A stretch of 55,545 nt of DNA, from NCBI GenBank assembly GCA_038065295.1, contig JBBTRG010000005.1:1-55545 (forward strand), read 5' to 3'. A model generated the notes under the pieces. The model was not told the DNA's origin, did not search any database, and worked only from the letters and a program-made list of their open reading frames with translations. The position numbers and the translations under genes were made by a program. Source of the stretch: Patescibacteria group bacterium (GTDB lineage Bacteria; Patescibacteriota; Minisyncoccia; JACROR01). This document shows positions 3,562 through 34,607 of the stretch, piece after piece; the first letter of the stretch is position 1; the number at the start of each line of letters is the position of its first letter.

Positions 3562-4422
3562 TCATCGTGCGATATTAATGTTCCGTAACCAAAATTTATT
3601 TAAAGTTTTTTCTAATTTTTGTTTCTTCAATAATTCGCTATTTATTTTATCCACCGCCTTAAACAACTCTGGTTTTATTTTTTTATATTGAAAAACTTTA
3701 ATGAGGGTTTTTAAATCCTTTGGCAAACATTTACCGCCAAAGCCGCGATATTTTTTATGAATCACATGCAAATGATTACTACCTATCCAGGGCTCAGCCG
3801 CTAATGCTTCTTGAATGATTTTATAATCCACATTATAAGCTTGGCATAAATCATAAATTTGATTGGCAAAAATAACTTTAGTGGCAAAAAAAGCGTTGCG
3901 ACTGTATTTAAAAATTTCAGCGGCAGTGGCCGACATAATTTTTGCATATTTCGCGGAAGGTAAAATTTTTAAAACATGACTTACTAACGGTCTGCTTTTT
4001 TGAGTGCAACCGATCAATTGTAAGGCAGGTTTAGAAAAATCTTGCCAAGCCGTGGTTTCCGTCAACAATTCCGGATTATGCATAAAATAATGACGCGGGA
4101 AAAGCGTCTGCAGTTTTTCTGTTGTCCCAACCGGCACAGTTGATTTCACCACAAAAAGCTTCGGCTGTTTAAAAAACCTTATCATCTCTTTAAAAACCGA
4201 TAAATCCACGCCGCTTTTTTCTTTGTTAGAATAAGGCGTTGGCAAACACAAAAAAATAATCCGTGCCCTGTCTACATCTTCCCGAAAATCGCTTGCCTTA
4301 AATTTATCATAAGTAAAAATTTTATGGTTTTTTAATTTAAACCATCTTTGCACCTGCATGCCCACCATGCCAAGTCCGACTATGCCGATATTTTTATTAT
4401 CATTAGCAACAAATTTTGGCAT
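3562..4422 (-). CDS. short UDP-glucose/GDP-mannose dehydrogenase family protein (NAD-binding plus central domain only)
   Basis: 286 aa with a Rossmann motif NIGIVGLGMVGMQV and the family hallmark catalytic-Cys motif GFGGKCLPKDL near the C-terminus. No room remains for the usual C-terminal nucleotide-sugar-binding domain. Confidence 0.6.
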   Translation of the reverse strand: MPKFVANDNKNIGIVGLGMVGMQVQRWFKLKNHKIFTYDKFKASDFREDVDRARIIFLCLPTPYSNKEKSGVDLSVFKEMIRFFKQPKLFVVKSTVPVGTTEKLQTLFPRHYFMHNPELLTETTAWQDFSKPALQLIGCTQKSRPLVSHVLKILPSAKYAKIMSATAAEIFKYSRNAFFATKVIFANQIYDLCQAYNVDYKIIQEALAAEPWIGSNHLHVIHKKYRGFGGKCLPKDLKTLIKVFQYKKIKPELFKAVDKINSELLKKQKLEKTLNKFWLRNINIAR

Positions 4423-26255: not shown

Positions 26256-27089
26256 TTATCTCCCCAAGCAAAAACGCAATTGTGCTGCGTTAATTTTGCC
26301 AAGCGGCTCCTCGATTAACTCAAAAGTATGAATATCCTCCTTCGCAAAGTAGTGGTACCGCCACGTTCTTTGCAGGTTATTTTTTAAGAAACGCGCGTTG
26401 GCTGCGCGGCCATCCACTACTATCAAAGTTCCGGGTAGTAAAAACGGCTCAAAAAGTAAAATATCCGCGGACATTGGCAAACGATCCGGCGATCTGGTGG
26501 AAATGCCACGCACATCATTCTTAACGGCAAATTGATCCGGACCGTCTAAATATATTAAATCGGGGCAAATGTTTGGCAATTTTTTATACATAGTGCACGC
26601 TCTTCCGTTAAATGTTGTCATCTCTACTTCCGACTGATGAAAATAAACGAAATCCAATAATGCGGGCGGGAACCCCTGTTTGCACCTGTCAATCCATTTT
26701 TTACCGCTATCAATGGAATGCACTTCAAAAGGATTAGCCCTCCTTAAGTTATTTGCGATACCCCCCCCAAACTCTTCTTTATTTTTCTTCAAGGCGTCAG
26801 CAAAAACTACGGTGCTTTTCCCCACACCAAATTCCAAAATAGTAGTAACCCTTCTAGTTCTTGCCAAAAAATGCAACCTAATTAAGTCATCCAGCTCTGC
26901 CGGAAAAGAAACGCTATTCTCCGGATTAACGCTTCCATAGAGACTCTTTTTTATCTTTTTCTCAACATTGCCATAAATCCCCATATCTATGCCAAATAGA
27001 TCATTGATCTTGTTGTCCGTGCACCATTCGCGGTAATTTAGATTCTTTTTAGTGTGCCGATCCTTAAACATTATTATATTTAATGCCAC
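26256..27089 (-). CDS. class I methyltransferase-fold protein (O-methyltransferase-like)
   Basis: ILEFGVGKST (motif I), DLIYLDGPD and GTLIVVDG resemble Methyltransf_24/CCoAOMT-type layouts. The gene sits between neuC and neuA and contains the G8 tract. Confidence 0.5.
   Translation of the reverse strand: MALNIIMFKDRHTKKNLNYREWCTDNKINDLFGIDMGIYGNVEKKIKKSLYGSVNPENSVSFPAELDDLIRLHFLARTRRVTTILEFGVGKSTVVFADALKKNKEEFGGGIANNLRRANPFEVHSIDSGKKWIDRCKQGFPPALLDFVYFHQSEVEMTTFNGRACTMYKKLPNICPDLIYLDGPDQFAVKNDVRGISTRSPDRLPMSADILLFEPFLLPGTLIVVDGRAANARFLKNNLQRTWRYHYFAKEDIHTFELIEEPLGKINAAQLRFCLGR
26761..26768 (-). repeat. G8 homopolymer (C8 on plus strand) inside the methyltransferase-like gene
   Basis: Read directly: ...gcgata CCCCCCCC aaactc... 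It encodes the GGG of EEFGGGIANN at about codon 107. Confidence 0.95.
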
Positions 27090-28233
27090 GATAATCCTGA
27101 AACCTTTTCTGCGTATAAAGTTTAGTTTTTGCCAAAACTTGCGCTATTTTTCTGCCCGTGCCCGGCTGAAAATACATATTGCTTAGCTGGTATTTCCCAT
27201 GCTTCAGCTGGCGCTCTATCGCCCGCTTGATGCTATTTTTAGCATAATTCGTATCCACTACATTTTCCGCGTGCATCCGGCCATTTTGCCGTGATCCGAT
27301 ATTAACCACGGGGACACCAAAATAGGAACACTCCTTGATGCCAGCCGATGAATTGCCAATAAGGCAAAGGGATTTTTTTAATAATCCTAAAAACTCTTCC
27401 GGCGGTAAATGCTTAATAAAATATATATTTTTGGGATTATTTTTCTCTCTGAAAATCCTTATTCCTTTGGAAATCTCGTCCGTTCCAGCATCAATATTCG
27501 GCCACAACCAAATAGTCGGAATCTGCAGTTCGTGAACCGCTTGCAAAGTTTTTGTTACATTCTCGCGGTTTTTGTCTATCTCGGAAGTAACGGGATGCTG
27601 CATTGCCATCAAATACGGCTTATTGATATCTATTACGCTGCCAACGCCTCTGATGGATGCTCCGGAAACTCCGTATCTTCCTTTGGCGATAAGTTCAAGC
27701 CCGGGACATCCGAAATTAAAAACATAGTTCGGCTTCTCCCCCATTCTTATTATTCTATCCTTGGATTGTTTATTGGTTGCAAAGTGGATATGCGCCAGTT
27801 TGGTAACGGCATGGCGCACGCTCTCGTCAATATTGCCGGTTACATCACCGCCCTCCAAATGCGCTATGGGAATATTTAAATAAGCGGCGGCAACGGCGGC
27901 AGATAAAATTTCATAGCGATCGCCTCGCACCACCACAACATCCGGCTCCAAGTTGGAAAAAGCGGTGGCAAATTCCGTCACTCCTATTCCGGTCGTCTTG
28001 GCCATGGCCAAAGGATCGCCCCCCTCAAAAGCCGTTGCAATCTTAAAGTTATAATTAAAGCCGTCATTTTTTAATGACGACACCACATCGCCATATTTTG
28101 GCAACAATGCGGAAGCGCCGATTATGATCTGCAACTCGACGTCTTTGCGTCGCTTAAGCTCACCCAGTATAAGTTTACTGCGCGCGTAGTGATTTCTAGA
28201 TGTGATTATAAAACAAATTTTTCTCTTGTTCAT
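27064..28233 (-). CDS. neuC: UDP-N-acetylglucosamine 2-epimerase (hydrolysing), NeuC type
   Basis: KICFIITSRNHYARSKLILGELKRR, VVVRGDRYE, AHLEGGDVTG, HFATN; 389 aa. Confidence 0.85.
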   Translation of the reverse strand: MNKRKICFIITSRNHYARSKLILGELKRRKDVELQIIIGASALLPKYGDVVSSLKNDGFNYNFKIATAFEGGDPLAMAKTTGIGVTEFATAFSNLEPDVVVVRGDRYEILSAAVAAAYLNIPIAHLEGGDVTGNIDESVRHAVTKLAHIHFATNKQSKDRIIRMGEKPNYVFNFGCPGLELIAKGRYGVSGASIRGVGSVIDINKPYLMAMQHPVTSEIDKNRENVTKTLQAVHELQIPTIWLWPNIDAGTDEISKGIRIFREKNNPKNIYFIKHLPPEEFLGLLKKSLCLIGNSSAGIKECSYFGVPVVNIGSRQNGRMHAENVVDTNYAKNSIKRAIERQLKHGKYQLSNMYFQPGTGRKIAQVLAKTKLYTQKRFQDYRGIKYNNV

Positions 28234-28246
28234 TCCGCCCTAAATA

Positions 28247-29338
28247 TCACGATAATATGCTGCCAACAATAGGATCATACCTATCCAAATCCTTAATAAC
28301 TCTCTTGCCGATCACATTTTCGTACTCTTCAGACGACAATCCGCCGGCATAGGCCTGCGGCCTCACGGCATATATCATGTCTTTTTGCAAAACTGTGCCG
28401 GCCTTTATTTTTCGTCCGGCCACTAATGATTTTCTAAAGATCGGCCTAAAAACCGCCTCGTCATCGGATAACAACTTAATTCCCACCGCTGCGCCTTGTT
28501 CTGTATAACGGTCTGTATTAATATTACCCATCTTCCGGATATTATCAACCATATCCTTAAACTCTTCCGGCATCATAGAAACCTTGTGATCGGAACCCCA
28601 CAAATCACGCGAAAAAGAAAAGTGTTTTTCAATCATTCCGGCGCCCATCTTAACGGCATCCGAAGCAGCGTCGCCGCCGATGGAATGGTCGGAAAAACCA
28701 ATCGTCACGCCATATCTATCTTTGAAAAAACCTATATTCTCAAGATGAAATGCCTCTGGCGGGCACGGATATTGGGAAACGCAGTATAATAAAATTATTG
28801 CCTGATTCCGTTTTTTTAGAAAACTCATTGACCTGTCAATCTCCTCCAGCGTGCTCATTCCGGAAGAAATGATAATCGGCTTGCCGGTCGCGGCTATATA
28901 GTCTAGCATTACAAAGTCCAAAATATCACCCGAGCCAACTTTCCATACCGGCGTCCCAATGCCCTCCAAAACTTGAGCCGCTCCTCTACTCATCGGCGTA
29001 GAGAAAAACATTATGCCAAGCTCATCACAATAGTCCTTCAATGCCCGCCAGAATGCCGCATCGGCTATTTCTGTATTTCTCTTAACCCAGTCGTATCTCT
29101 CGCCGCCCACAAAATGCGGAGAAACCACGCTGACTTTAAGCTGCTCATCATCCACATTGTGAGTTTGGAACTTAACGGCATCCGCCCCGGCAATCTTGGC
29201 TGCATATATCAATGCCTTGGCATTGTCCAAGTATTCTGTCGTCGGTCTCTCCTCTTTGGTCTGAATAAAATTCTTGACAATTTCCGCTATAAAAAAAACG
29301 GGTGTATTCAATTTTTTCCATATTGCCTTATTGTCCAT
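28247..29338 (-). CDS. neuB: NeuB-family nonulosonate synthase, divergent N-terminal motif
   Basis: AGADAVKFQTH, FSTPMS, FSDHSIG, IEKHFS and a C-terminal SAF-like region (RKSLVAGRKIKAGTVLQKDMIYAVRP). The usual IAE.G.NHNGS motif is replaced by IAEIVKNFIQTKEERPTTEY. Confidence 0.75.
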   Translation of the reverse strand: MDNKAIWKKLNTPVFFIAEIVKNFIQTKEERPTTEYLDNAKALIYAAKIAGADAVKFQTHNVDDEQLKVSVVSPHFVGGERYDWVKRNTEIADAAFWRALKDYCDELGIMFFSTPMSRGAAQVLEGIGTPVWKVGSGDILDFVMLDYIAATGKPIIISSGMSTLEEIDRSMSFLKKRNQAIILLYCVSQYPCPPEAFHLENIGFFKDRYGVTIGFSDHSIGGDAASDAVKMGAGMIEKHFSFSRDLWGSDHKVSMMPEEFKDMVDNIRKMGNINTDRYTEQGAAVGIKLLSDDEAVFRPIFRKSLVAGRKIKAGTVLQKDMIYAVRPQAYAGGLSSEEYENVIGKRVIKDLDRYDPIVGSILS

Positions 29339-29344
29339 TTTTGA

Positions 29345-29372
29345 TTGACGTCAAGCGCTTATGTGCTAATTT
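29345..29372 (+). promoter_or_regulatory. candidate extended -10 promoter for paralogue B, overlapping a 10-bp palindrome
   Basis: TTGACG (29345..29350), a 16-nt spacer, then TGcTAATTT (29364..29372). The -35 element is part of the perfect palindrome TTGACGTCAA. Confidence 0.3.
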
Positions 29373-29435
29373 TATTGCTGCATACAGCTTAAAATGTTTT
29401 TGCCATTTAATCAATAATGCGGTAATCTAATTAAA

Positions 29436-30992
29436 ATGGATACTGCATCATCAGTCCAAAAGACCACTACCTCCGACCAAAAGATCTGCTTTTTTTTGCA
29501 AAGAAGATTTGCCTATGTTGGCCATACAATGGCCATAACATTCAAGAAAAAATATGGCCTAAATCAATTTTGCGGCTATGTTCAGCTCCGCGATAGCTTT
29601 GAATTTTTAAAATCCCAAAAAGATATCGCCTACACCAAGTTATTACTGGAGGAAGACATCCAAAAACAATACGAAAGTGAGCCGTTGGACTTGAATTACA
29701 TAAAATATCTAGAACGGGAATATGGCATCCCTAATCTTTGGCCGTTCATAGACACAGATCGCATCATCAGATACAACTTACTGGTTCGCGAATACCCCTA
29801 CGACACTCCAACCTATACGCACGAGGAGATGATGAGAATCCTGCAAGTGCAGGCCAAGGCAATAATCAAATTTCTCAAAGAAGAGCGGCCGAATCTCATA
29901 ATTTTCTCGGTCGTTGGCGCTTTGAGCAGTTTGCTCCTCTATTACATAGCAAAAAAAGAAGGCATACGCACTTTAGTCATACAAAGATCCCGCATTGGCA
30001 ATAAATTTTCACTAACCGAAAATTATGATGACGCGGGTTATCTGGGAAAATCTTTTGATGAAATTCAAAAAGACAATGCGCCCGATCAAACATATATTAA
30101 ACAAGCGGAAGAATTTCTAAACAACTTCCGCGACAAACCCTCTCCCTACTCTATCGCGGTTACCCCCAAAGGCAGGCCGACGAGTAGAAAAAAACAATTC
30201 GCTTTCTTAGCGCCAGGCCACTTATTAAAATCCATTGGCTGGTTTCTGGAAGTATTACGCCATTATCTGTCTGATAAAAACCGTGATGATTACTCCACCA
30301 TAAAGCCGTGGTACTTTTTGTGGGATAGAATAAAAAGAAAAACGAGAGTCCTTAGAGGTTTTGACGATCTTTATGACGCGATTAATTTGGACGAAGATTT
30401 TGCTTTTTTTCCTTTGCAGGCCGTGCCGGAAATATCCACCATGCTTCATTCGCCGTTTTATATGGACCAATTGTGGCTCATCAAACAAATTGCCCGCTCA
30501 CTGCCATTACACTATAAACTTTACGTTAAAGAAGCCCCCGCCATGTTCGGCTACCGCCCTAGACGCTACTACAAAGAGCTCAAAAAAATACCCAATGTTA
30601 AATTGATTAATCCTACAATCATAAGTTTTGACCTAATCAAAAACAGCAAAATAGTGCTGACCAATACGGCAACTTCGGGGCTGGAGGCGTTATTTTTCAA
30701 AAAACCGGTGATAACTTTTGGCCACGCGTTTTATAATATTCTGCCCATGGTCAAAAGGTGCAGAGCCATTGAAGATCTGCCCGTGATGATAAGGGAACAG
30801 CTTGAAAATTTCCAACACGATGAAAAAGCTTTGATTTATTTTATAGCCGCCCTTTACAAGGAAAGCGTTGATGTAGATCTGATACAACTTTGGAATGTTG
30901 AAGGAAACGCGGAGATGGAGAAAAAAGAACGAGAGCTTATTCCTTTAGTGGACTTAATCGCCGAAAAAATAAAACTTAAGCCAGTCACTTAA
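29436..30992 (+). CDS. KpsS/KpsC-like (Capsule_synth-like) putative ulosonic-acid glycosyltransferase, paralogue B
   Basis: FAFFPLQAVPEIST...KLYVKEAPAMF...PNVKLINP...TNTATSGLEALFFKKPVITFG aligns by eye with the protein at 20985..22436. Confidence 0.45.
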   Translation: MDTASSVQKTTTSDQKICFFLQRRFAYVGHTMAITFKKKYGLNQFCGYVQLRDSFEFLKSQKDIAYTKLLLEEDIQKQYESEPLDLNYIKYLEREYGIPNLWPFIDTDRIIRYNLLVREYPYDTPTYTHEEMMRILQVQAKAIIKFLKEERPNLIIFSVVGALSSLLLYYIAKKEGIRTLVIQRSRIGNKFSLTENYDDAGYLGKSFDEIQKDNAPDQTYIKQAEEFLNNFRDKPSPYSIAVTPKGRPTSRKKQFAFLAPGHLLKSIGWFLEVLRHYLSDKNRDDYSTIKPWYFLWDRIKRKTRVLRGFDDLYDAINLDEDFAFFPLQAVPEISTMLHSPFYMDQLWLIKQIARSLPLHYKLYVKEAPAMFGYRPRRYYKELKKIPNVKLINPTIISFDLIKNSKIVLTNTATSGLEALFFKKPVITFGHAFYNILPMVKRCRAIEDLPVMIREQLENFQHDEKALIYFIAALYKESVDVDLIQLWNVEGNAEMEKKERELIPLVDLIAEKIKLKPVT

Positions 30993-31310
30993 TAGATCCC
31001 GCTACACTTCGAGAGTTATTTCACAAAAACCATTACGTGGATTAACGACAGAAAATCAAAAATCGGCAGAGGAATATTAACTTTGCTTTTCAATGGAAGT
31101 CTGACAATCCGTCTCATCTTTTTTGGAGTAAACCAATTTACGTGATCTTCTATCTTAAGCGCTCTTTTTAATTCTTTAACGTCATCCAAACTCTGGACAA
31201 AAATATAAATACATGCTATAGTGGAACAAAATATCATGCTCAAAACACTTATGGCATGATGCGTTATAGAGATATTATAACGAACTGTATCTTGACAATG
31301 GAGGTGTGCT

Positions 31311-32408
31311 TTGCCAAAAAAGATAGTTTTAGTTACGAGAGATGCCGCTCCTTCACGCTGTTTTAAGCGGCTGGAGCCAGTTTTAAGAGAGCGCGGATTT
31401 GATGTGGTGCTTTTCATAGGCGACGGCAAACCGCTTGCGGAGACTATGGATGAGATAGGGTTTGCCGCATCTCATGCGAGCGTAGTTGTATTGGGCATGT
31501 CTTCCTCTGCGGAGCTTGCGCGACCGGAGATTGCGGCTGGGGAAGCGGCCAAGCGTGCCGGTGTGCCATATGGATTTTACGGAGATGTTAGTCGTTGTTG
31601 GGGACGGGCCAGAAGCGGTGCGTGGTTTGAGGGGCTTGCTTCCGGTGCCGCTTTTTATTTTGGAGTGACACAGGAAGATACCGATACGGCTCGTGAAGTT
31701 TTTCCCAGCGCGAAACTTATCGGTACCGGTAATCCACTTCGCGAGGAGATGGCTTTTCCGCATTTTACGCGGGAAGAAGTTCGTGCCAAGCTCAACATAG
31801 CACCCGAAGAGAAGCTGGTTCTAGTGCCCGGCGGAAAATTTGCCGCTGGTAATCTATCCATGTGGGCAATGATAATGGACTCGCTTGCGTCTCTTACGAA
31901 TTATGATTTGCGTTTCCAGCTTGTGCTGGCAATTCACCCAGGCGACAGAACTCCGTATGCATTGGACGCGGCATCTAAAAAAGAGATGGTGCTCTATGAC
32001 GAACTACTTTCGTGCAGTCCAATTCCTGCAAGAATAATAAATAAAGATATTCTTACCGCTTCCGATATAGTCTCTGGCGCTGATATTGTCGTTGAGTGGG
32101 GAAGCTCTATCGGCATTGAAGGCGCATACCAAAATGTTCCTGTGATAAGTTTGGGTTTAGAGATACTGCGCCGTCGTTTAGAGCGTGCCAGCGATGTAAG
32201 AATACCTGAAGCTGTGAACGCAGGACTATCAGAATTAGTATCCGCCGACACCAATAAACTGGCCGATACTATTCAACGCCTTCTCACGCCAGATGGTTTT
32301 GCTCCAATGCGTGAACGACAGCAGAAGCTTTGCCCGAAACCAGCAGAGCGCGGTGCCGCGCTTCGTAAGATCGCGGACGCCATAGAAGACTTAACTAAAG
32401 AAGCTTGA
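31311..32408 (+). CDS. GT-B-fold glycosyltransferase/hydrolase-like protein (family unassigned), compositionally foreign
   Basis: 365 aa with a TTG start 6 nt after GGAGG. It is visibly GC-richer than all neighbours. The C-terminal half has a GT-B-like pattern (LVLVPGGKFAAGN..., ILTASDIVSGADIVVEWGSSIGIEGAYQNVPVISLG). Confidence 0.45.
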   Translation: MPKKIVLVTRDAAPSRCFKRLEPVLRERGFDVVLFIGDGKPLAETMDEIGFAASHASVVVLGMSSSAELARPEIAAGEAAKRAGVPYGFYGDVSRCWGRARSGAWFEGLASGAAFYFGVTQEDTDTAREVFPSAKLIGTGNPLREEMAFPHFTREEVRAKLNIAPEEKLVLVPGGKFAAGNLSMWAMIMDSLASLTNYDLRFQLVLAIHPGDRTPYALDAASKKEMVLYDELLSCSPIPARIINKDILTASDIVSGADIVVEWGSSIGIEGAYQNVPVISLGLEILRRRLERASDVRIPEAVNAGLSELVSADTNKLADTIQRLLTPDGFAPMRERQQKLCPKPAERGAALRKIADAIEDLTKEA

Positions 32409-32433
32409 TCGCTCAAGCTTCTTTTTATTTTTA
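32400..32433 (+). terminator. Rho-independent terminator
   Basis: Stem gaagcttga / tcaagcttc (9 bp, includes the TGA stop) with a 4-nt loop, followed by TTTTTATTTTT. Confidence 0.8.
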
Positions 32434-32772
32434 TGACTATCGGCGGATAGAAATTTTTCTTAAAATACGTATATTGCGAATAACAATAAAAAGATCTAAA
32501 TACCCGATTATCAATATCGCTATGTAATTGGTAATATGTTCAATCACTTCCGTGCAGATAACAACTTCACAACCCTGCCACGAATAAACGCATTATAATT
32601 TTTTTATCCATAAATTTTTTGGTTAAATTGATAACAAAAACATCATTCTTAATAACAAATGCCGTATTTTAAAATATACCCGACCTTGTTTATTATAAAA
32701 AGCAATCCTATATATCACAATATAACAGCTATTTGCTTACAAAAATAGTGTGCGGCTTGGTTAGCGGCACAT

Positions 32773-33567
32773 TTAGAGCCCACATGCAATATTCTTAAGC
32801 AGATATACGTTCTGATGTGTCGGAGGCTGGACTATATCAAAATGTTTTTTCTTGAGAAAAGTCAGTAGTGCATCAGCGGAATGCTTACCGTGTTCGTGAA
32901 TTTCAAAAGCGATATACTGGATATTGTTATAAATTTTTTCTGGTAGTTGATATAAAACTTCGAATTCCGAGCCTTCAATGTCCAATTTTAGAAGATCAAT
33001 AAATTTGATATTATTTTTTTGCATAATATCCTCGATGGTAGTGCAAAGCACTTCTTGGTCGCCAGAAATACACCGAACGCGTCCTTGCTCGAGGCTATGC
33101 GCATATTCGGAAGTTGATAAAAAAAATGTGCGCTTGCCGCTTTCTGCGCCCACAGCAAGCTGGTAGGGAAAGGCCTTATCTGTCGCCTTATTGAGTTTTA
33201 TATTATCAACCAAAACACGATAATTGGATTCTTCCGGCTCATAGGCAAAAATTTTGGCATTTTTGAATAAATTTATAGCAAATATAGAAAAAGTGCCTAT
33301 GTTTGCGCCTATATCCAAGATTACTGGGTTGGCGCTATTAAATGATACGGATGCCAGTCCATAATCATCTCTGGAAAACATTTCGTGCGCGACAACAAAA
33401 TCCGGGCCAAAAATGTTTCTAACATAGATTCGCCCCCCCCCCTCCCTTATTTTCAGCACCCTATCTTTTTTCAATATGCGCGTCATTGGCCACACAATAG
33501 TATACCAATTTTTATATGCCCTCATTCTTGTAAAAATATGCCTGATTTTGTCTAAATACTTGTTCAT
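32773..33567 (-). CDS. FkbM-family methyltransferase
   Basis: ILDIGANIGTFSIFA, FAYEPEESNYRVLVDNIKLN and IDLLKLDIEGSEFEVL are classical FkbM (Methyltransf_21) motifs. The gene contains the G10 tract at about codon 42. Confidence 0.85.
   Translation of the reverse strand: MNKYLDKIRHIFTRMRAYKNWYTIVWPMTRILKKDRVLKIREGGGRIYVRNIFGPDFVVAHEMFSRDDYGLASVSFNSANPVILDIGANIGTFSIFAINLFKNAKIFAYEPEESNYRVLVDNIKLNKATDKAFPYQLAVGAESGKRTFFLSTSEYAHSLEQGRVRCISGDQEVLCTTIEDIMQKNNIKFIDLLKLDIEGSEFEVLYQLPEKIYNNIQYIAFEIHEHGKHSADALLTFLKKKHFDIVQPPTHQNVYLLKNIACGL
33433..33442 (-). repeat. G10 homopolymer (C10 on plus strand) near the 5' end of the FkbM methyltransferase gene
   Basis: Read directly: gattcg CCCCCCCCCC tccctt. 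On the coding strand it reads agg gag ggg ggg ggg cga = REGGGR. Confidence 0.95.
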
Positions 33568-33596
33568 TTTATAATTTATGATTAGTTAACAATACT

Positions 33597-34607
33597 TTAA
33601 TGCTGATTTAAATTACCTAAAAATATCCTAAAAATCATCCCGTGCGTCAAGAGAGCCATTAAAAACCGGACATTATACGGATAGCAGTTATAATGCTTCC
33701 TGATGGCGTCAATGATATATTTATTTACATTAACTTTATTTTTCTTTGCCGACAAGATGGTGGCAAGGACAAAAGCGGCAAAGAGTTTTTGATACTCTCT
33801 ATGCTCTTGGGGCATATAATCCTTAATTATATCCAATATTTCACTGCTATCGTATAAATTAACTCCAAGTATTTTGTGGGGAGATCCGGTCCAATGATTT
33901 TCGTTTTTCCGGTGAAGAATTAAGGGTTCGGCGATAATATTGAATCCTCCTAACTTCGCAATCCCCATAATAATAGGCGCCTGATAAAGATATACATTGT
34001 CCGCGCGCGCATATTTCCTGGCCTCATCCATCCAATCTAAAAACAATTTCTTCTTACAGGCGACCGTGCTGATGAGGCCTGTCAAGTAGAGCCAGTTTTT
34101 AATTTTTGACAGTTTCTTTGCTTCTGTTTCAAAATTTCCAATCAGTACATCCTCCTCAATATCCAGGCGCTTGTCTCCGATTATTTCATAGTCTAAATTT
34201 CTATCATCATGAGATAAAATATTTTGGGTATTCAAAAGCATATAATTCGGACTGTGGGCATGAATAGATTGCAAAACTTTATTGATGGCTCCTTCGGTAA
34301 TCAAGTCATCTTCCCCAAACATCCATATATATTCTCCACGAGCCGCGGCAACCACGCTTAGAACATTTCCGGAAACTCCAAGATTTTTGGAGTGGTTTAT
34401 GGCTTTTACAAACTGATATTTGGATTGCAGTTGGTTAAGATATTTATCCGTGCCGTCAGACGACGCATCGTTACCAATGATAATTTCAACTTTATCGGAC
34501 AACCCGTCATTTATAATCTGTGAGATAAAAAGAGAGGCGGTTGTCTCCAAAAATTTAACTCTGTTATAAGTGACAATTAAAACGCTGAGAATTGGTTTGT
34601 GATTCAT
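33597..34607 (-). CDS. GT2 glycosyltransferase (soluble type)
   Basis: MNHKPILSVLIVTYNRVKFLE..., IIIGNDASSDGT, MFGEDD. The longest ORF runs to 34703 inside the upstream gene, but the conserved start is at ATG 34607. Confidence 0.8.
   Translation of the reverse strand: MNHKPILSVLIVTYNRVKFLETTASLFISQIINDGLSDKVEIIIGNDASSDGTDKYLNQLQSKYQFVKAINHSKNLGVSGNVLSVVAAARGEYIWMFGEDDLITEGAINKVLQSIHAHSPNYMLLNTQNILSHDDRNLDYEIIGDKRLDIEEDVLIGNFETEAKKLSKIKNWLYLTGLISTVACKKKLFLDWMDEARKYARADNVYLYQAPIIMGIAKLGGFNIIAEPLILHRKNENHWTGSPHKILGVNLYDSSEILDIIKDYMPQEHREYQKLFAAFVLATILSAKKNKVNVNKYIIDAIRKHYNCYPYNVRFLMALLTHGMIFRIFLGNLNQH

Follow-up and report, generated by a model that had tools for sequence, protein, structure and literature searches.

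The poly-G tract and its host gene

The window, by which we mean the whole stretch of 55,545 nucleotides analysed, carried a gene for an FkbM-family SAM-dependent methyltransferase of 264 aa on the minus strand (32773..33567). The family identity, proposed in the preliminary description, was confirmed by matches to PF05050 (5e-19, 69.5 bits; cut-off 22.7) and TIGR01444 (4e-27, 95.5 bits; cut-off 37.7). A run of ten G, the candidate slippage switch, was located in this gene at 33433-33442 on the coding (minus) strand; it appeared as C10 on the plus strand, where direct reading gave ...GATTCG CCCCCCCCCC TCCCTTA... around these positions. The coding strand was AGG GAG GGG GGG GGG CGA, encoding R41 E42 G43 G44 G45 R46, and the run consisted of the final base of GAG followed by GGG GGG GGG. 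It had been placed at about codon 42, which held for its first base; the full span was codons 42-45.

The catalytic domain occupied residues 82-243, and residues 1-81 formed an N-terminal extension carrying the hairpin turn encoded by the tract. This 80-residue extension, a feature that sets the subfamily apart within the FkbM family, was kept mainly among CPR relatives. In about 20 homologs the N-terminus of the open reading frame was conserved from approximately residue 5, including the 40 residues ahead of the tract, showing that the tract is truly intragenic. In the AF2 model (pLDDT 90), residues 36-40 and 46-49 were predicted to be strands, with the turn at residues 41-45. The SAM motif DIGANIG (D85-x-G87-A-N89-I90-G91) was invariant or nearly so in the family alignment, and the top Foldseek matches were all class I methyltransferases at probability 1.00, pointing to a class I Rossmann fold. 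In this predicted fold, in the motif and in scores well above the cut-offs, the protein resembled the FkbM family at large (PF05050/TIGR01444). Sequence and fold searches of the PDB retrieved generic class I methyltransferases only, with no hint of the substrate.

Gain or loss of one G had been predicted to truncate the enzyme after about 45 residues. The in-silico slips confirmed truncation in both directions, with an uninterrupted G10 lying upstream of the catalytic domain. The predicted length was close for one G gained (G11, stop after 49 aa) and too short for one G lost (G9, stop after 81 aa); both stops fell before the catalytic domain. The frame was kept when the tract was set to G7 or G13.

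The FkbM gene was the last of a co-oriented run, and its downstream neighbour was convergent. Because of this terminal position before a convergent pair, a frameshift in the gene should have no polar effect. A GT2 glycosyltransferase gene (336 aa, 33597..34607, minus strand; PF00535 7e-20) lay ahead of the FkbM gene in the same orientation, separated from it by 29 nt, and is a likely operon partner. A terminator and promoter scan around the FkbM gene was uninformative except for a hairpin at 32397-32424, after the convergent gene.

Long G/C runs are rare in the window

The window had been described as AT-rich, with no other G/C run longer than 8. The first point applied only moderately, as the GC content was 41.6%; the second stood, the sole other G/C run of at least 7 being C8 at 26761-26768. 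Runs of G or C numbered 542 at length 3, 130 at length 4, 26 at length 5 and 2 at length 6, dropping steeply to 0 at length 7, after which a single run of 8 and a single run of 10 reappeared. The longest A/T run was 8, so that no homopolymer in the window, whatever the base, exceeded the G10 tract, which was also the sole run of at least 10. Models of order 0 to order 5, with the tract excluded, gave an expectation of 0.003-0.08 runs of at least 10 per window. Such a run is unusual for 55 kb, although the laxest model leaves room for about one per genome of approximately 1 Mb.

The tract was also over-represented relative to codon usage. GGG was the rarest Gly codon (14% of Gly codons) and the tract was pure GGG. 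Seven stretches of three or more Gly were encoded in the window; five were written without any GGG codon, and the two built on GGG-GGG were the two methyltransferase tracts, G10 and G8. None of the nine other conserved Gly codons in the FkbM gene was GGG, either in the window gene or in its 76%-identical ortholog.

These counts bear on the main rival to a switch, in which the tract is an incidental homopolymer under no selection of its own: a Gly-rich turn is written in GGG codons and has grown by in-frame slippage, and frameshifts are defects that are purged, with no adaptive switching. A chance expectation that is not negligible over a genome of about 1 Mb, at least under the laxest model, fits this explanation. 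The avoidance of GGG elsewhere argues against it, as do the A/T runs, which are compositionally far likelier and nevertheless end at 8.

A second tract and the wider survey

The C8 on the plus strand at 26761-26768 was a G8 tract on the coding (minus) strand of another gene (26256..27089), where TTT GGG GGG GGT made up codons 108-110. The gene encoded a class I SAM methyltransferase-like protein of 277 aa with a weak Methyltransf_24 match (PF13578, 2.5e-4, below the cut-off); several of its homologs had precomputed PF13578 matches, and some were named 'class I SAM-dependent methyltransferase'. It was located between genes for NeuC (TIGR03568 2e-115) and a CMP-sugar synthetase, with a NeuB-family gene nearby. 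The ortholog in L176 (83% aa identity) carried the same G8, and that in L175 (86% aa identity) read GAG GGG GGG GTT, a G8 with one extra codon. In more distant orthologs the residues were G-E-F and the tract was absent.

Beyond the window, runs of at least 8 were found in 3 of 184 FkbM-homolog ORFs (the window gene, L003 and L074), a further respect in which these genes differ from most members of the family. The fetched loci with less than 50% GC, about 545 kb in total, contained only two runs of at least 8, the G9 of L003 and the G11 of L074. Across the 184 ORFs plus about 600 kb of low-GC DNA, such runs were confined to four genes: the FkbM gene, its ortholog, the other methyltransferase of the window and one FkbM gene from Bacteroidia. 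The last of these (L074, Bacteroidia bacterium PG1894_201, BNXT01000054.1) had an in-frame G11 at 4193-4203, in codons 39-42 of a 282-aa FkbM-domain gene (PF05050 3e-18), also upstream of the catalytic domain. We considered whether this G11 was at the homologous turn and rejected the idea, as manual and HMM alignment both put it in an upstream hairpin; lying in a different hairpin, it arose independently, in the same enzyme family of another phylum.

The same site in related genes

The closest ortholog of the FkbM protein (P0002, from L003), 76% identical, had a G9 tract in frame at the same site (AGA GGG GGG GGG CGT). Four-fold sites were only 54% identical between the two genes. In the family alignment only G44 was conserved at the turn, where it was nearly invariant, and indels were frequent; the window protein had one residue more there than nearly all homologs, and L085 had an 8-residue insertion. 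Other homologs encoded Gly-Gly-Gly at the turn with mixed codons (GGA GGC GGC in L004, GGA GGG GGA in L174). P0362 (L177), 95% identical to P0002, carried no tract and read R-M-G-S-D, with ATG GGC AGT GAT in its place. A scan of JGI metagenomes with the family alignment, made with generic patterns, gave no close relative among the matches listed, the best of which was 35% identical.

Judged from the alignment and the structural model, the hairpin turn is tolerant of indels and of other residues, as in the M-G-S-D allele, and the protein has no need for Gly-Gly-Gly. Because the G run was kept while the turn residues varied, and because other homologs used mixed codons, the pure G run, which occurs in two lineages and is present or absent among near-identical alleles, is on this comparison a feature of the DNA rather than of the protein. 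The comparison with relatives that the preliminary description had proposed favoured the same view through the G9 ortholog, the G8 in two orthologs of the other methyltransferase and the freedom of the turn. A pattern of presence and absence is typical of contingency loci; judged from the alleles alone, it would be compatible with a mutational hot spot as well. The support from conservation was modest, with p of approximately 0.01-0.16 depending on the assumptions, and amounts to one shared origin plus retention.

The incidental explanation draws on the same alignments. Gly is frequent at the turn across the family, G44 is nearly invariant, and the orthologs differ by one whole codon, all of which fit this explanation. 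If frameshifts were purely costly, however, synonymous changes breaking the run (GGG to GGA, GGC or GGT) would be favoured, and the pure tracts have persisted at two sites despite about 45% change at four-fold positions. Tolerance of non-Gly residues at the turn also counts against it. We regard this explanation, a homopolymer that arose incidentally and without selection where the turn tolerates it, as a serious possibility, with a probability of roughly one in three.

A different explanation keeps variation at the tract and dispenses with an off state: slips of three bases would change the number of Gly residues at the turn and tune the enzyme. The extra residue of the window protein, the one codon by which L175 exceeds the window at the G8 site and the status of the turn as an indel hot spot are consistent with this. 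In both cases, however, the extra codon was GAG at the 5' edge of the tract, which could equally have come from a point change within a run that was once longer, and the turn is not part of the catalytic domain. Moreover, mononucleotide runs slip by one base much more often than by three. Variation restricted to whole codons therefore appears improbable as the explanation of the tract.

Tract length across assemblies

The window was identical to contig CAYINO010000002.1 (87 kb) of NCBI GCA_964364825.1 apart from two SNPs, and the same population was represented in two further assemblies, one from Hainich groundwater (ENA ERZ1292636) and one made by Logan from ERR3858122. The tract was G10 in all four assemblies, namely the window, the NCBI MAG (L001), the ENA Hainich contig (L002) and a Logan ERR3858122 contig (L173), with no length variant among these four. 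All four are consensus sequences, in which minority alleles cannot show, and the samples behind them may not be independent. All tracts seen were in the ON frame, including the G10 and G8 of the window and those of L003, L175, L176 and L074. The uniform G10 and the intact frames are both in accordance with the incidental explanation.

Several searches were made for OFF alleles. No truncated OFF product was present in the protein collection searched, and cluster members of the tract-bearing proteins showed no length variants, the search bringing up the tract-less allele L177 instead. Exact look-ups with neighbour genes recovered only contigs that ended at the tract or read G10. One protein, P0018, seemed N-terminally truncated and was considered as an OFF allele; its DNA frame proved intact, the turn carrying an insertion of 8 residues and the start having been called late, and the candidate was rejected.

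The Logan ERR3858122 assembly was broken exactly at the tract. Contig L171, corresponding to window positions 29304-33432 plus G8, ended in TTCG followed by G8 in place of C10, and contig L173, corresponding to 37107-33429, read G10 and stopped after the next 4 nt, CGAA. The break is probably technical, caused by dark-cycle G calls on a template strand with the G run, and could possibly reflect heterogeneity instead.

The break and the anomalous end of L171, together with a coverage of only 3x for the ENA contig, raise the question of whether the tract or its exact length is a product of Illumina poly-G or homopolymer errors in sequencing or assembly. Four assemblies nevertheless agreed on a G10 that is in frame, and a diverged ortholog from another project had an in-frame G9 at the same codons. 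The tract was also internal to contigs, with conserved coding sequence on both sides. An artefact is very improbable, and the tract itself is confirmed.

Host lineage and the surface-glycan island

The contig carried pyrH (UMP kinase) about 8 kb past the end of the window, and its product was 89% identical to one from Candidatus Niyogibacteria. In a scan of GTDB genomes, the nearest species representative for the FkbM protein was Ca. Taylorbacteria (44% identical), and relatives of the FkbM gene and its neighbours belonged to Taylorbacteria, Paceibacterota or Patescibacteria. Close relatives of the second methyltransferase carried the names Patescibacteria or Paceibacterota. Because the relatives of pyrH, of the FkbM gene and of the second methyltransferase all point there, the host is a member of the CPR (Parcubacteria), in agreement with the lineage assumed in the preliminary description. 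The genomes of CPR bacteria are tiny, and the cells are believed to live attached to those of other organisms, which makes their surface the interface with host and phage.

The tract lay within an island of surface-glycan genes that exceeded 60 kb, taking in the entire window plus a further 8 kb or so (L167, 55546 to approximately 63000), and had nearly all genes on the minus strand. Since the whole window consists of glycan genes, the location of the tract among them gives no measure of enrichment. The island encoded two NeuB-family proteins, NeuC and two CMP-sugar synthetases, as well as PseB- and PseC-like proteins and Rml proteins with a C-methyltransferase. Heptose genes (SIS, GHMP kinase and HAD) were present, along with approximately 10 methyltransferases, B12-radical-SAM enzymes and several GT2 glycosyltransferases. 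KpsC/S-like proteins, a Wzy_C/TPR protein and an ABC exporter were also encoded. For a genome of CPR size, an island this long takes up a very large share.

A candidate contingency locus

The tract had been interpreted as a likely phase-variation switch. Tract anatomy, truncation by a change of one G and the tracts in orthologs support this interpretation in part; the four consensus assemblies, all G10, and the ON frame of every tract weigh against it. On balance we lean towards the view that the G10 locus is a credible candidate contingency locus, of the type known from cj1426 and in a lineage from which none has been reported, and we judge this somewhat more probable than even.

Under this switch model, the G10 would be a slippage-prone simple sequence repeat towards the 5' end of a gene for a glycan O-methyltransferase, in a host resembling Candidatus Niyogibacteria. 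With G10 the frame is open, as its reading frame indicates, and the full enzyme would be made. Slipped-strand mispairing at replication would add or remove one G at a rate far above that of point mutation, to judge from G8-G11 tracts elsewhere, and the shift would leave a fragment of only 49 or 81 aa that lacks the catalytic domain, as in the in-silico translations. A further slip would restore the frame. The population would always include a minority of cells short of one methyl decoration on the surface glycan made by the island, and switching would be expected to touch this single modification only, because the FkbM gene is the last in its transcription unit. By analogy with characterised systems, the likely benefit would be escape from phages or changed recognition of host cells. 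The G8 tract in the other methyltransferase gene could add a second switch and yield combinatorial 'phasotypes'.

In Neisseria, Haemophilus and Helicobacter, slipped-strand mispairing in coding G/C runs toggles glycan-modifying enzymes (for review context, see PMC8437040 and PMC11466379). The FkbM gene resembles such loci (pgl and lgt in Neisseria, fut in Helicobacter) in having a coding G/C run in a gene for a glycan-modifying enzyme. It differs in that those loci are mostly glycosyltransferase genes of host-restricted pathogens with documented phasotype shifts, whereas ours is a candidate from sequence.

The closest parallel is cj1426 of C. jejuni, which encodes the capsule heptose 6-O-methyltransferase, is ON with G10 and OFF with G9, and affects phage sensitivity (PMC3546167). 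Both genes have an intragenic poly-G tract and encode a SAM methyltransferase for the decoration of a surface glycan (putatively so in the window), a likeness that is functional and architectural only. Switching, phenotype and the link to phages are demonstrated for cj1426 and predicted here, and the host here is an uncultured groundwater CPR bacterium as opposed to a host-associated pathogen of the Campylobacterota. The setting is also similar to that of the capsule, LOS and flagellin-glycosylation clusters of C. jejuni, with a genome of fairly low GC and large glycan loci containing heptose and nonulosonic-acid genes (PMC8437040). Measured switching rates are about 2e-2 (PMC8437040). C. jejuni genomes contain 12-29 poly-G/C tracts, the majority of which belong to glycan clusters (PMC8437040), compared with the two tracts of at least 8 known here.

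Full-text literature searches combining phase variation with CPR, Patescibacteria or Saccharibacteria retrieved no relevant paper, consistent with the earlier remark that such tracts are not an established feature of CPR-type bacteria. If the slippage switches are real, CPR surface heterogeneity would be generated in the same way as in Campylobacter or Neisseria. The mechanism is a textbook one, and the value of the finding would be in lineage and ecology, with no new principle involved. In practical terms, a MAG consensus hides population variation at such tracts, and assemblies break there. We also put forward, tentatively and with more doubt than confidence, that ultra-small CPR bacteria run a multi-locus poly-G 'phasotype' system with at least two methyltransferase switches in the island of more than 60 kb, producing stochastic glycan methylation as bet-hedging against phages or for attachment to hosts. 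With such a system, the range of contingency loci would widen beyond host-restricted pathogens and include episymbionts of the free environment.

Local sequence variation around the locus

The two SNPs between the window and both the NCBI record and L002 were at 29277 and 29303 (A/C and T/C). Logan contig L171 begins just past the second, which suggests a population polymorphism. The ENA contig L002 was about 99.9% identical to the window over 26822-34136 and 19% divergent over 34137-34463, where L002 ends. The divergent segment suggests that the 5' half of the GT2 gene, directly upstream of the FkbM gene, may be a mosaic or recombinant allele in a second population.

Between L177 (1638-2417) and L003 (272-1051), 15 of the 43 nucleotide differences were packed into 27 nt around the tract, a clustering suggestive of either a hot spot at this site or conversion over a short patch. 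In L003 the tract-bearing gene was followed at 1424-2185 by a diverged second FkbM paralog (PF05050 3e-10), a position held in the window by the convergent gene. Within an uncalled gap of the window (30993-31310), positions 31016-31153 on the minus strand were 74% aa-similar to the 3' end of the gene preceding FkbM in L003. This segment is probably a gene remnant, left by a rearrangement around two plus-strand genes (29436..32408).
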